A stretch of DNA of 64,000 bases from Fistulifera solaris (GCA_030295235.1 AP026128.1:1302001-1366000), one strand, 5' to 3'. Shown: positions 21,243 to 57,045, counted from the stretch's first letter. Translations and numbers: made by a program. Notes: generated by a model from the letters alone, not told the origin.

Positions 21243-21737
21243 ATGAATGGCAATTGGATGATCTTAGTGTCTCTCGCTCTGCGGGTGTTTTCGTACACGA
21301 CGCAATTGCGACGGCGACCCAAATTTATTCTACGCTCACAAGAATCCTCCGAGGAAGAAGGAACTAGCACGATGACCGACCGATTCAAATTTCAAGTAAA
21401 TGCTTTATTAGGCATGTATGACCCAATCGGAGATCCGGAACAAGACACGGAACATTCCACGGCACACAATTTAGCCGGAGCTCTTTTGCAATTTCCGGCT
21501 CCATTTATTTTTACTGTCGTGGGTCGGACTATGGGAGAGAATCGTAGCGAATATACCGAACTCGTACAAAGGATAGTGCGAGAGGAGACGGGCGACGACG
21601 CGATGGTGTGTGACGTTGTTCCTCGAGGGAGTCAATTCACCAAAGTGACGTGTACGGCGACTGTCGACAGTGCGGAGGTGATATCGTCGGTACACGAGGC
21701 ATTGGGAGCTCTCGAAGCTACCGTGATGAAATTTTGA
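21243..21737 (+). CDS. DUF493/YbeD-like ACT-fold protein, probably plastid-targeted
   Basis: N-terminal leader followed by LLQFPAPFIFTVVG...RGSQFTKVT...VDSAEVISSVHEAL. Confidence 0.65.
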   Translation: MNGNWMILVSLALRVFSYTTQLRRRPKFILRSQESSEEEGTSTMTDRFKFQVNALLGMYDPIGDPEQDTEHSTAHNLAGALLQFPAPFIFTVVGRTMGENRSEYTELVQRIVREETGDDAMVCDVVPRGSQFTKVTCTATVDSAEVISSVHEALGALEATVMKF

Positions 21738-22255
21738 GTGCCATTCAGAGAGAAGGATGATCGCTTTCGCATTCATCGCAACAAAAATGCAAGGTAGCTA
21801 GTGATTCAATGGGCGATCTTGGCTGCAAAGGATATTTTTTTAAAAAAGCACGTCAATTCAGCGCCTTTCTTGGCACCCAACAAATTCTGACGGCGACATT
21901 GAATTAATGAACGTACTTACTGTGAGTAGTGCAGTGATTTCTCTAGGTTATGACGTTGATGTGAATGCTATGCGCTTGACCTCAAGAGCTTGCTCAAACG
22001 AGGAAGACATTCTGAACAAGGAGAAAATATAATACTAGAGTGACTTTAGCCTTGGCACTGACTTGTATCTTGTTCCTTGTACGGAGTATTCATGAATTCA
22101 TGTTTTTGTTGCTGCTGTGCGCACGTTTCGCGCGGTAGATATAAACTCCACCCATCATCGTCAACATCAATTATTGATTCCTGTAATAAAAGGCCCCATA
22201 AATATAGAACGAAAGGACAAGGAAAGCGTTCTTATATTTCTTTTTGCCCTTGATT

Positions 22256-50534: not shown

Positions 50535-52710
50535 TTACTTTTGGATGATGGTGAGAATCTTGTTGGTGCGGGCCTTGATAAAGTGTTCACGAACAACGTT
50601 CCACTCGTTCATTTTGTCTCCCTCGTCAATCAGAAGAGAAACCCAGCATCGCTCTTGTTGTCGAGGTAGCGGTTCACGATCTTTGGAGCCCTTGTAGTTA
50701 CGATTGATATGAGGTAGACTACGGTCTTCGGCGACCTGCAATCCAAGTGACAGCTGCACAAAGATCGGGAGACGCGACGGTTGACTCTCGGTTTCCGCTG
50801 CAGATTCACTGTGATCAAGATTGGGAATCATTGGACAACCAAGGCTTGTTGAAGCGTCCGAATCCTGGTATTTCATATCGGCGAAGCCTTTCCAGATTGT
50901 CTTTGTGGGGCTGTCGATGTCGTTCAACTGATACTCACCGTCAATACTAGGGACCGGAGTTTTCTTGTCGGTCACTTCGCGTCCTCTATTGACTGGCCAT
51001 TCCCAACGCAACCAATGCTGTTTCTGAAGCTCGAACCGTTCTTTCAGTTGCTCCTTCTTCTCATCTAACAATTGCAAGGACTCGTACCGATCCTTCATGT
51101 TGCTCATGAGTTCGGTTTGCAGAACCTCGAGACGATGCTTCAGCATGTCGGTTCCGAGGTAGAATGCATCCCCGTCATGAGAACGGATCATGGTAAAATG
51201 ATCAATCGAATCAAATGCGGATGGCTTGACAGGACGGTCGTTTTCTTCGCGTTTGAGAGAACGCTTCCAACGAAATCGCTTGGCTTGCTGGGGTGTGCAC
51301 ATTTCGACACTTGCTTCGTCGATGTTGAACCACAACGCCACTCCGCGCACAGTAGGATCCTCATCCGGCCCGAACGCTATCTCTCGCACCAGAATGTGTT
51401 CATCTTTGTGGGATCGATATTCCGAAATCGGAATTTCATGAACCACAAGGTTCTTGACAGAGAAGGCTCGCTTTTGAAGCACCATACAAAGCTCTTCGTA
51501 AATGACATGCTGCGGACGGTACTTGTACTGCCACTCGGGAGAGGAACCGCGCATTTGCAACGCAACTTGTAGCTTGACGATTGCATGGACCGCTTTCTTT
51601 TGACGTCGACTGTCGACCCATCCGTTCTTGACGTAATTTATGTTGCACACGAGCTTGTAATAGTCACTCCAATTCTCGTTGACCATGCTGAACTGATGGC
51701 CGAACGGGTGTCCCATCAAGATGTGATTCTGGCGCTTTTGATTGAGAGCTTCGACGTTGATATCGGTAGCCATGGTATTCCCTTGTGTCTCAGTCTGTGG
51801 TAACCACGAGTGATAGGTTCCGCCGACCCTAGGATCGTGAATACTCGTACAGCGTTTACCGAAAGGACTGCGTCGATAGTCGAGAGTGAGTTGAGGTATA
51901 AAAGATGCTTACAGAACAGCTGGCCTCGTGATATTAAAGTTCTTACCATGAACCCGTGGAGATCCAAGTAAAGCACGGCTTAATGCGATACGTATCTTTA
52001 TCCACCAACCCAGCTTCATGCAAATCCCACAGTTTGGTCATTTGCAATTCTTCTTCTCCGTGCGCATAAGTACATTCTGTTGCAAGCAAGTCAAGAAAGA
52101 GTCAAGTGAGTGCGAATACGCAACAAATACAAGCAATCATCAAGCTATTTTGCTTTCACTTACCCGAACCGAACGGACACATTTTTCCGTTCATGTAATG
52201 GATGCACATTTCTGTTTTAATCCGAGTCTTCCGATTCAATTCATCATCTGTGGTAGTGGTGGTCGCGACTTGTTTGAACGGCGATTTCTTTCCGAGGGGA
52301 CTTTTGAGTCGCGGCGAAGCACGAAACGTGCTGTTGCCTGGACTACAACTCCAACGCATCATCCCGAACGAATCATCTCCCCATGACTCGGATACTGTAT
52401 CTTCTGTGACGAGACTTCGCATGGAAGGGGACGTTGTTCCGTTCTTATGATAAACGGGAGGCGTATAACGACCCGCTGTATTGCGTTCCTCTTTGATGGG
52501 TACAAAATCGTACGGAGAACGGGGTTGCGGAGTGCTCCAACCTCGCGAAACGACTGTAACAGGACTGGTCATTCCATCTTCTCCAGTATGAGGAATTTCA
52601 ATGCATTGTATGCTCGGTGATTGTGTGCGGGAACGGGACGGGATAGGACGACGAATGTGAAGAGGGGATTGATGATTCTTCGATGATTGTTGCGGACGAT
52701 ACGGTAACAT
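50535..52710 (-). CDS. Tandem CCCH zinc-finger (TIS11-like) RNA-binding protein (introns 52077-52163 and 51868-51945)
   Basis: Splicing gives [24 protein letters not shown] and [22 protein letters not shown], in frame with the 412-aa ORF. Confidence 0.88.
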
Positions 52711-54917: not shown

Positions 54918-55316
54918 TTACTTGGCTTGTTCTAACGACTTCAATCGCTCCATAGCCTTTTCGTACTTGTCTTTCCATTCATCCAGTTCGTCTTCCAATT
55001 CATTGATTCTCGATCGAATTCGCTGACGACTCGCTGCAGCACTCTCTCGATTGCGAACTCGTCGAGCTTCCCGTCGCCATGCGGCAAGTTGATCTTTGTT
55101 CATCGGTACGGAAGGATCATAACGAACTTGTGTTTTCTTTTTGCCTTTGTTGTGATGAGGAGGCGCGTCATCGGCTTTGCGCTTCTTGGGTTCACTCGAG
55201 TCCGTTTCTGTTTCCATTTCGTTGTCGCCCTCGTCACGTTGTGATGTAATGATGGCTTTACGACGTTTGCGAGCTTCCGCTGGATCTGTCTTTTTTGTAT
55301 CCTTATCGTCCTTCAT
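54918..55316 (-). CDS. Short bZIP transcription factor (132 aa)
   Basis: RYDPSVPMNKDQLAAWRREARRVRNRESAAASRQR followed by a zipper that ends at the stop. Confidence 0.9.
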   Translation of the reverse strand: MKDDKDTKKTDPAEARKRRKAIITSQRDEGDNEMETETDSSEPKKRKADDAPPHHNKGKKKTQVRYDPSVPMNKDQLAAWRREARRVRNRESAAASRQRIRSRINELEDELDEWKDKYEKAMERLKSLEQAK

Positions 55317-55551
55317 TTTCCTTTAAATAATGAAATGCGTGGGTTGAAAATGTGAAGAAAGACACAACTGCAAAGAATGCGCCGTCTGTAACTATCTTCT
55401 TTCGTCGAAGAAAGTAGTTCAACAACTCAATCCGTGCAACACGCGGAAGTCCTCCTTGCCTTACACGTTGAATGCAATGGATGTCAAAAGTAGTGTCGCT
55501 GCTCGCTGCTGTGTCCGAAATTTTGATGGCTGTTTTTCGGCGAAGCAATAC

Positions 55552-55688
55552 TGACGTAGCGGTACTGAAAACGACGAGAACGTCAGAGTGACGTTCATGC
55601 TCCTCGCGCGAGCGCTGCGCGGAAAAAATTGCCGCGTGGCATTTTGACAGTTTTCTTTGACATCTTCTTTCGCCGGTTTGCTACGTCA
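55552..55688. promoter_or_regulatory. Cluster of four TGACGT (CRE/bZIP) boxes in a bidirectional promoter
   Basis: TGACGT at 55552 (+), 55580 (-), 55589 (+) and 55683 (-). Confidence 0.55.
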
Positions 55689-55828
55689 CGCTCTACTATC
55701 CGTCATAATGTAAGCGAATCGTGTTGCAGACCCGCACCTTTTTTCTTCTTCCACCTCCTTTTTCATTTTCATCGAAAGAACCGTTCAATAGTCATACTTT
55801 TTCATTGCTTTCATCAGAAGTGAGAGAC

Positions 55829-56750
55829 ATGCGATTATCGACTCCTCTCGATACTGACACACTTGCTCCTACCGCTGTTCGTAAACGGCGTATTGAAATG
55901 CGCCAACTGCAGCGGTTTGGAAGTGAGGACGACTTCAAGTCCTCCAACAGGAAGCGCGTCCGTTACGATGACTCGCTTTCGAGCTCGAGTAGTACGAGCG
56001 GTGACGAGGAATCTTCTTCTGCGGGAAATACTTCGATTCGAGGATACAAGAAGCATGCTCGGTACGTTCCGGAAGTCCCCATGACGAAAGCAGAGCTTTC
56101 GGCTTGGCGGAAAAGAGGCACGTCGGGTTCGCAATCGTGAAAGTGCGGCGGCGTCTCGACAAAAGACGCGTTCGCGCATTGAAGAGCTCGAAGGGGAAGT
56201 CGACAAACTTCAGGAGAAGTATTTGCAGGCGCTACAGCGGATTGCGGATCTAGAAAATGGTGTTCGAGGTAGTTTTACCCCGGCGACATTGTATCAAGAC
56301 ATGATGAAGCATTTGGGTCATATTAGTACTCCTGCAGCCGATGTGTTCGTCCAGCCAGAACTCTCTGTCACCGTTTCTCCTCCACAGTCACCGCGCTCGG
56401 AACCACTTTTCATTTCGGAGGATCTCAATCAGCCGCAGCACATGGATATGTTCTCACGATCAACTGACGTTTGATTCGTGGACTATTAATGGTTGTTTAC
56501 AACCAACTTTTAACATTTCCTTCCAGCAGTGAAGACCTGCCATGATGCTGCACCTTCTGACTTGAGTCCTCTTGATTTGATTGGTTCATCCGATGTTGCA
56601 TTGACGGTCGACGAGAATCGAGTTTCGGAACCTTCTCCGTTGGATACCACACACATCGCGTTGAGTGATATGCACGATTATGAACTTGGGGAATTTCTAT
56701 GTGAAGCTTTTGCGGAACACGATGCGGAAGACACTTTGAACATTCTTTGA
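55829..56750 (+). CDS. bZIP transcription factor, HAC1/XBP1-like candidate (extra A at ~56111-56114; unspliced stop 56474; predicted non-canonical intron 56467-56526)
   Basis: RYVPEVPMTKAELSAWRKEARRVRNRESAAASRQK plus zipper. Removing 56467-56526 fuses in frame to the acidic ORF 56529-56750. Confidence 0.8.
56435..56551 (+). other. Predicted IRE1-type bifurcated stem-loop / unconventional intron
   Basis: Loops CTG|ACGT (56464-70) and CAG|CAGT (56524-30) on stems, closed by basal pairing of 56435-45 with 56540-51. Confidence 0.7.
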
Positions 56751-57045
56751 CGTTACAGACGTTTGTGTGTCTTGCCAGCTTCTTCGTGTAGATGTATCCG
56801 ACGACTTTCATCCGCTTTTCGTTGTCCGAAAACAAATCACTGAAGAACACTTGCATAGTAACCAAGTTAGTTTATTTTAAGAAGTATCAATCTCTAGAAT
56901 TTTTAATACGTGCATTGTGCAAATTGTATAGGTTCGATCCACTCTGCGATATTGTTCTTGTTGATCAAAAACCAGCGGGATAGTTCAGGTCTAGGAGTTA
57001 GATTGTCGACCAGTCATTGATTGTTGCTAACTGCTTGGCAAGTTG

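Follow-up and report, generated by a model that had tools for sequence, protein, structure and literature searches.

The window analyzed here, a 64,000-nucleotide (nt) stretch of the genome of the diatom Fistulifera solaris (GCA_030295235.1 AP026128.1:1302001-1366000), contains on its plus strand a bZIP gene whose mRNA very likely has an IRE1-type intron, removed without the spliceosome and comparable to those of the HAC1 and XBP1 mRNAs. That a splice of a non-spliceosomal kind occurs at the two sites described below, after G56466 and G56526, is close to certain; that the element serves as an unfolded-protein-response (UPR) switch operated by IRE1 is likely. An earlier note on this DNA, made from the sequence alone, had presented the gene as a candidate diatom equivalent of HAC1 and XBP1, a label that we retain in the sense of functional analogy alone.

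Without splicing, the bZIP open reading frame (ORF) closes at a TGA that lies inside the excised segment. When 56467-56526 is removed, the frame continues as ACT-GCA-GTG-AAG and then through a 74-codon acidic tail that ends ...DYELGEFLCEAFAE..LNIL. The two cuts fall in the loops of two hairpins, CUG|ACGU and CAG|CAGU (the bar marks the cut), both of 7 nt and both fitting CNG|(C/A)NGN, and the exons on either side are joined by a basal stem, in which GCAGCACATGG (56435-45) pairs with CCATG-a-TGCTGC (56540-51). The earlier note had read the stop, the hairpins, the basal stem, the loss of 60 nt together with the stop and the entry into a D/E-rich tail directly off the sequence, and each of these proved to be where it had been placed. 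Folding agrees with that description as well: a 126-nt segment (minimum free energy, MFE, -34.0 kcal/mol; z -2.72; 4 of 200 shuffles as good) reproduces the basal stem and both hairpins and adds a central hairpin at 56490-505, and in a 241-nt segment (MFE -73.7 kcal/mol; z -3.98; equalled by 0 of 200 shuffles) the exon-exon stem becomes much longer. In the energy model, loop 2 is closed by an additional C-G pair. The 15-mer CTTCCNGCNGNGAAG has a single occurrence in the window, against 0.01 expected. A search of Rfam with 56200-56800 yielded no family of the HAC1/XBP1 type, just two sub-threshold snoRNA matches.

Spliced molecules are present in RNA-derived data. Seven sequencing runs were found for the locus, and the contigs of four of them (X1, X3, X5 and X6) were aligned to the window. 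In run X5, a soil metatranscriptome recorded as RNA, one contig skips 60 nt, the gap being placed at 56465->56526 with 1 nt of slack, so that the placement equals the predicted 56466|56527 join; the possible intron ends are AC..AG or GA..CA, not GT..AG. We read this contig as the spliced form of the window gene or of a very close relative. Further X5 contigs end at 56466 or begin at 56526. For others from this run, the match is confined to 56364-56560, with divergent sequence on either side. Variants among the reads within the intron, at 56485, 56508, 56511, 56516 and 56518, are all mid-intron, and none falls in either hairpin or in the basal stem. The unspliced form is represented by run X1, the type of which is uncertain (RNA is a guess) and which covers 55771-56890 with the 60 nt retained, and by one contig of run X6 (depth 2.8, 56329-56531), which is probably DNA.

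The same kind of join recurs in relatives of the gene. A scan of metagenome contigs by alignment gave 184 pattern matches and 122 relatives, and the locus set used below, L001-L080, comprises the best 80 of the relatives. One of its members, L044, is already spliced: its contig encodes ...IIRPIA|AKISPGANEK... and reads through to a 406-residue product, and when it is compared with its closest unspliced relative, L043, the flanks abut over a clean 100-nt gap, G|C to G|C, for which the possible intron ends are CT..AG, GC..CA or TT..GC. RPIA|AKI is found also in seven of the 12 longer proteins that were fetched (P0121, P0160, P0163, P0164, P0166, P0168 and P0203), one of which is near-identical to L044, and P0166 is a named MMETSP transcriptome protein of cultured Tryblionella compressa. 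As for the other five, P0128 and P0140 are unspliced, P0195 has neither motif, and P0174 and P0179 are genome gene models with different joins. One cluster at 90% contains both spliced (P0121, P0244) and unspliced (P0243) forms. Junctions of this type were what the earlier note had asked RNA reads to reveal, and its forecast of a 60-nt skip is borne out by the RNA contig aligned to the window, and joins of the same kind are seen in orthologue transcript data. Public genome gene models, for their part, guess an intron at the element, with RPIAC|ILPG(AD) in P0174 and RPIA|SKI in P0179; both are wrong at the join, and the resulting protein differs from the transcript-derived RPIA|AKI form.

The element is conserved across diatoms. 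With the bZIP part as the query, 120 protein matches were obtained, the diatom sources among them being Cyclophora, Trieres, Mayamaea, Stephanodiscus, Nitzschia, Bacillariaceae and Tryblionella; all 24 orthologue proteins that were fetched are ~130-210 residues long and have in common a C-terminal motif, ...QHIMDMISRPTA(V), which no more than a few residues separate from the stop. At the RNA level, the 3' hairpin is nearly invariant. The pattern [CT]TTC-NNGNNGN-G[AG]AG occurs 42-162 nt 3' of the stop in 78 of the 80 loci, the exceptions being L040, with a 6-nt loop variant, and the spliced L044. Among the 78 loops, CAGCAGC (43) and CAGCAGT (20) predominate, followed by CCGCAGC (8), CTGCCGC (3), CCGCAGT (2), CAGCCGC (1) and TAGCAGT (1), so that 77 match CNG(C/A)NGN; the stem is CTTC/GAAG in 74. 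In most loci, a CTAAT/CTTAA box, a pyrimidine run and then CAG stand 5' of this hairpin (56505-56523 in the window), a succession that resembles a spliceosomal branch point and acceptor, although the observed joins are not spliceosomal; the box may be a source of stops in other frames or a relic.

Conservation extends to the protein encoded beyond the join. In all 70 complete tails (60-206 codons, median 141), the tail frame that a G|CA join dictates outruns both other frames, and in the remaining 8 it is open up to the contig end. The introns inferred for the orthologues measure 59-189 nt and fall in any phase, and the tail is therefore unreachable by readthrough. An LGEFLxDxF-like motif is common to all 30 of the tails that were printed. 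Judging from these sequences, the tail frame, closed off in the unspliced mRNA, is under selection at the protein level, and what the splice joins to the bZIP part is a conserved acidic tail with the LGEFLxDxF motif and a putative role in activation. A protein search with the tail among the longer proteins gave no match, which is weak evidence, the tail being short and of low complexity. Upstream of the join, the QHIMDMISRP peptide that precedes the 5' site keeps its residues across the loci, with variable third codon positions (caa/cag, cac/cat, tct/tcc, cga/aga, cca/ccc/cct); the peptide, and not the RNA alone, therefore seems to be under selection. Standing just before the stop, ...QHIMDMISRP may act in the nascent chain as a signal by which the mRNA is recruited to the endoplasmic reticulum (ER).

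The exon-exon stem is maintained through different sequences. For the duplex test, the loci were anchored on both sites, the arms were taken as 42 nt of the 5' exon ahead of the 5' hairpin and 54 nt of the 3' exon behind the 3' hairpin, and 43 representatives less than 80% identical were drawn from the 66 loci with full flanks. Cognate arms pair at a mean of -32.0 kcal/mol, compared to -15.0 kcal/mol for non-cognate arms and -14.2 kcal/mol for shuffled 3' arms; each of the 43 representatives is better than the median of its own non-cognate pairings, and the observed mean is attained in 0 of 2000 permutations. The sequences of the arms vary by lineage and the pairing is kept, as in TATCAGCAC/GTGCTGATA, TACCAGCAT/GTGCTGGTA and CAACAACA.../...TGTTGTTG. 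Whole-element folds have a mean z of -3.5, with z < -2 in 34 of the 43. Conservation of loops and stems, on which the earlier note had staked its proposal, is thus seen in two forms, a 3' loop and stem that are nearly invariant and an exon-exon stem that is retained in 43 de-replicated loci through different sequences. The tetranucleotide GATC occurs three times in most of the loci L001-L080, as ATGATC in the 5' exon, as GATCAC just after the 5' hairpin and as GAAGATC beyond the 3' hairpin; copies one and two lengthen the 5' hairpin, and the third could permit an alternative pairing after cleavage.

Of the MFE folds of the 43 representatives, 41 leave the 5' cut site unpaired, 39 of them within a hairpin loop, and 28 leave the 3' cut site unpaired, 26 of them within a hairpin loop. 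A tRNA-type bulge-helix-bulge intron is cut in two 3-nt bulges with a 4-bp helix between them. That arrangement was not seen, the cut sites lying in separate hairpins of the MFE folds; no dedicated search for it was run. For 67 distinct loci, homology and frame served to locate the 5' site, the join being observed directly in the window and in the L043/L044 pair only. Position -1 is G in all 67, and position +1 is C in 66 and A in the window; at the 3' sites the cut is G|C, with C next after the cut in 78 of 78. UUG|CUUG accounts for 29 of the 67 5' sites, lies in an 11-nt loop closed by GAC/GUC and is the class with the most spliced transcripts.

Several observations weigh against an IRE1-type intron, and some of them lend themselves to other explanations. 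The X5 join, taken by itself, is weak: only one contig shows it, at depth 4.8 and 90% likeness, the shorter side amounting to just 27 letters, and this contig possibly comes from a close relative in the sample, given that such joints can stem from related organisms. RNAalifold, applied to a plain MAFFT alignment of 28 elements, returned the invariant 3' hairpin alone, with 0 compensatory pairs, a failure that we ascribe to the variable length of the intron, which defeats the alignment and for which the anchored duplex test was used instead. Twin loops alone are not beyond chance, since twin CNGNNGN hairpins arise fortuitously at about the density seen here: hairpins that combine a CNGNNGN loop with a stem of 4 bp or more number 40 in the window, and a second twin CNGNNGN pair, presumably fortuitous, is present at 50795/50954 (+); it is the sole other pair in the window with such loops, stems of at least 4 bp and a spacing of 40-200 nt. 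It could be argued, then, that the hairpins are accidental and that the tail ORF, which is in one frame with the bZIP ORF in the window, is reached by stop readthrough or frameshifting or is not translated. We consider this exceedingly improbable: two stops (56472, 56511) separate the ORFs, the spacing in orthologues falls in any phase, the tail is conserved at the protein level, and joined transcripts exist. An ordinary spliceosomal intron has more in its favor at first sight. The 3' site does look like a spliceosomal acceptor in most loci (CTAAT/TTAAC box, pyrimidine run, CAG), an in-phase GT is located near the 5' site and before the stop in 64 of the 78 loci, the genome gene model P0174 uses a GT-AG-like join (RPIAC|ILPGAD), and in the window GT56469 with AG56533-34 leaves an open frame. 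The earlier note had maintained that GT56469 leads only to stops, which was incomplete in that it overlooked the third AG at 56533-34 and, with it, an in-frame GT-AG intron of 66 nt, 56469-56534, that would run from ...ACT GAC to ACC TGC and would have to be often retained. Nevertheless, the skip in X5 measures 60 nt instead of 66; CAG(C/T)GAAG is preserved in every join derived from transcripts, with RPIA|AKI in L044 and the seven proteins; an in-phase GT ahead of the stop is lacking in 14 of the 78 loci; and the palindromic CTTC/GAAG stem, kept in 74 of the 78, is not needed by an acceptor site. Because the observed joins keep CAGCGAAG, the GT...GAAG| model is excluded, and the canonical GT-AG readings of 58, 61 and 66 nt alike are ruled out by the joins, so that the account of the distal ORF that the earlier note had itself raised as a rival fails. 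We accordingly regard a spliceosomal origin as very improbable.

The alternative that deserves more thought, if still an unlikely one, is an unconventional excision by a nuclease other than IRE1, for instance the tRNA-splicing endonuclease or an RNase of another kind, or one triggered by something other than ER stress. According to the general rule for IRE1 (PMC4891664), the substrate is a twin hairpin with two 7-nt loops, and cleavage in each loop falls 3' of the third-position G; yeast Ire1 requires CNG|(C/A)NGN in a 7-nt loop, a motif that allows the A found at +1 in the window (PMC8104961). The 5' site lies outside CNG|NNGN in 44 of the 67 distinct loci and fits in 23, and the best-evidenced 5' site, UUG|CUUG in its 11-nt loop, has neither the -3 C nor the +3 G required by the yeast enzyme. 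However, 77 of the 78 3' loops are an exact match to the Ire1 motif, 7 nt long and carried on a stem of 4-5 bp, and the cut sites are mostly at hairpin tips in the MFE folds, not in the 3-nt bulges of a bulge-helix-bulge. Furthermore, both cuts follow a G, and G|C is the minimal motif of the Schizosaccharomyces pombe Ire1, a promiscuous enzyme that cuts UG|C in loops of 3-9 nt (PMC8104961).

Under IRE1-type splicing, which remains the reading that we favor, the unspliced mRNA would be translated into a bZIP protein of ~214 residues that ends a few codons after the conserved ...MISRPTA-like peptide and has no activation tail. The long exon-exon stem would present the two hairpins and keep the halves together, and, presumably upon ER stress, an IRE1-type nuclease would cut after the G at loop position 3, at 56466|56467 and 56526|56527. 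The 60-nt piece, with its stops, would be lost, and the exons would be ligated by a tRNA-type ligase, giving an mRNA that encodes a bZIP protein of ~286 residues, with the 74-residue acidic tail and the motif ELGEFLCEAF, which would putatively activate UPR genes. Of these elements, the RNA structure, its conservation across diatoms, the exact non-GT-AG joins and the selection acting on the tail are shown by the data, and IRE1 as the nuclease, ER stress as the trigger, the tRNA-type ligase and the activating function of the tail are inferred. The coordinates of the features involved are collected in Table 1.

Table 1. Features of the bZIP locus and its RNA element, in window positions
Feature	Position	Strand	Remarks
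Short bZIP paralogue, head to head; context, not part of the switch	54918..55322	-	134 codons from stop to stop; shares the basic region; lacks a tail
bZIP gene, N-terminal coding part	55829..56113	+	from ATG 55829-31 to the A-run Lys codon; N-termini of P0001-P0004 align here
A4 run, one surplus A in the window	56111..56114	+	breaks the frame shortly ahead of the basic region
bZIP part of the unspliced ORF	56115..56471	+	basic region and zipper ~56112-56258; ORF end ...QHMDMFSRSTDV
5'-exon arm of the long exon-exon stem	56405..56446	+	duplex with 56535-56588, -41.6 kcal/mol; visible in the 241-nt fold
5' splice-site hairpin CACG-ATCAA[CTGACGT]TTGAT-t-CGTG	56455..56480	+	loop CUGACGU 56464-70; cut G56466/A56467; fits CNG|(C/A)NGN
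60-nt unconventional intron, AC...AG ends	56467..56526	+	also contains TAA 56511-13; 60-nt skip in X5 contig
TGA stop of the unspliced ORF	56472..56474	+	inside the excised segment
Central intron hairpin	56490..56505	+	RNA fold
3' splice-site hairpin CUUC[CAGCAGU]GAAG	56520..56534	+	cut G56526/C56527
Coding part of the 3' exon, acidic tail read only after the splice	56527..56750	+	stop 56748-50
3'-exon arm of the exon-exon stem	56535..56588	+	241-nt fold; duplex energy
Conserved acidic-hydrophobic motif ELGEFLCEAF, putative activation motif	56682..56711	+	[DE]LGEFLxDxF form in all 30 printed tails

Known systems resemble the diatom element in some respects and differ from it in others. The XBP1 intron is 26 nt long. 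It always shifts the frame, whereas the diatom introns, of intermediate length (59-189 nt), fall in any phase and, in the window, the intron is in frame and contains a central hairpin. The splice of the plant bZIP60 mRNA removes a membrane anchor, whereas the unspliced diatom protein has no such anchor and gains a tail, and diatoms are stramenopiles, not Archaeplastida. In the diatom protein, no hydrophobic pausing segment is evident after the splice site, and no membrane anchor is evident either. With HAC1 of Saccharomyces cerevisiae, processed by Ire1 and Trl1, the diatom element shares a long intron flanked by a pair of Ire1 hairpins, the motif CNG|(C/A)NGN, which both loops of the window fit, and the exchange of a short C-terminus for a tail, an activating one in HAC1. 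The HAC1 intron differs in pairing with the 5' untranslated region and thereby blocking translation (PMC4891664), a pairing neither sought nor seen in the diatom mRNA; the many database ORFs of the unspliced type suggest that the unspliced diatom mRNA can be translated.

Further parallels are with XBP1, which is processed by IRE1alpha and RtcB: as described in PMC4891664, its bZIP mRNA is translated unspliced, cleavage in twin 7-nt CNG|CAGN loops follows the third-position G, the halves are kept together by pairing between the exons, and the splice adds an activation domain, the corresponding role of the diatom tail being putative. PMC4891664 also gives the XBP1 intron as about ten times shorter than that of HAC1, and CAGCAGN loops are known from nematodes (PMC12530127). 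Among photosynthetic eukaryotes, plant bZIP60 (PMC4891664) and CrbZIP1 of Chlamydomonas (reviewed in PMC13545648) are IRE1-spliced bZIP mRNAs. Finally, the UG|C sites of S. pombe Ire1, which are cut in regulated IRE1-dependent decay and in the BIP1 mRNA, resemble the many diatom 5' sites, UUG|CUU, UAG|CUU and AUG|CAU in loops longer than 7 nt, that fit a relaxed G|C rule; the S. pombe cuts lead to decay or truncation with no ligation of exons, whereas the diatom cut is half of a splice. By analogy, then, the diatom element would function like those of XBP1 and HAC1, through twin loops, an exon zipper and an added tail.

The gene itself is, in all likelihood, intact, despite a break in the frame of the window. 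Pfam recognizes bZIP_2 (E 8e-9) and bZIP_1 (E 1.3e-7) in 56112-56471, only these generic bZIP models being matched. The A run at 56111-14, where the frame is broken, a feature that escaped the earlier note, is one letter shorter in the contigs of runs X1 and X3, and P0001, which is 88% identical, reads SAWRKEARRVRNRES across this site without a break; the surplus A probably reflects either a strain difference or a homopolymer error of the assembly. For the 5' half of the gene, 55828-56113, runs X1 and X3 contain a second version at a third to half of the depth, which differs at 19 of 286 nt, has TCT inserted behind 56011 and is a divergent allele or a homeologous copy.

The neighboring bZIP paralogue (Table 1) is possibly a dimer partner of the product. 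A head-to-head pairing of bZIP genes is seen also in L016 (around 479), and in six cases among the protein matches a ~205-residue and a ~145-residue match share the same longest-contig figure. Between the two bZIP genes of the window, four TGACGT sites are clustered within 137 nt, 55552-55688, out of 32 in the whole 64 kb. Autoregulation through TGACGT was considered and dropped, with 0 sites in the 500 nt upstream of all nine orthologous loci that have at least 500 nt of upstream sequence. A second TGACGT cluster, 21611-21956, lies beside a DUF493 ORF and a WD40 ORF and has no link to an ER chaperone.

A search of the full-text literature found no IRE1 substrate in a diatom or any other stramenopile, in keeping with the earlier note, which had been aware of none, although one may have been described before. 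Diatoms and other stramenopiles go unmentioned in the part of PMC4891664 that is available, and PMC4736632 sampled bZIP proteins of diatoms and other heterokonts, none of which it linked to IRE1 splicing. A joint reading of the evidence, which we offer tentatively, as one that may well be right but to which we would not commit, is that IRE1-bZIP splicing is native to stramenopiles and predates the split of the SAR (stramenopile, alveolate and rhizarian) group from the known lineages, which would give it a far greater age than its occurrence in animals, fungi and plants implies, and that diatom IRE1 follows a relaxed 5' rule (G|C, 8-11-nt loops) beside a strict 3' rule, uniting the stringent mode of the HAC1 type with the promiscuous mode of the S. 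pombe type.

A conserved, transcript-supported IRE1-type intron in diatoms would place this mechanism in a fourth, very distant lineage and would supply the long-missing output of the unfolded protein response in an ecologically dominant group of algae. The contrast between strictness at the 3' loop and latitude at the 5' loop amounts to a natural experiment on the substrate specificity of IRE1. Moreover, the join could serve as a ready reporter of ER stress for diatom biotechnology, assayable by reverse transcription PCR across 56467-56526 or the equivalent segment of an orthologue.

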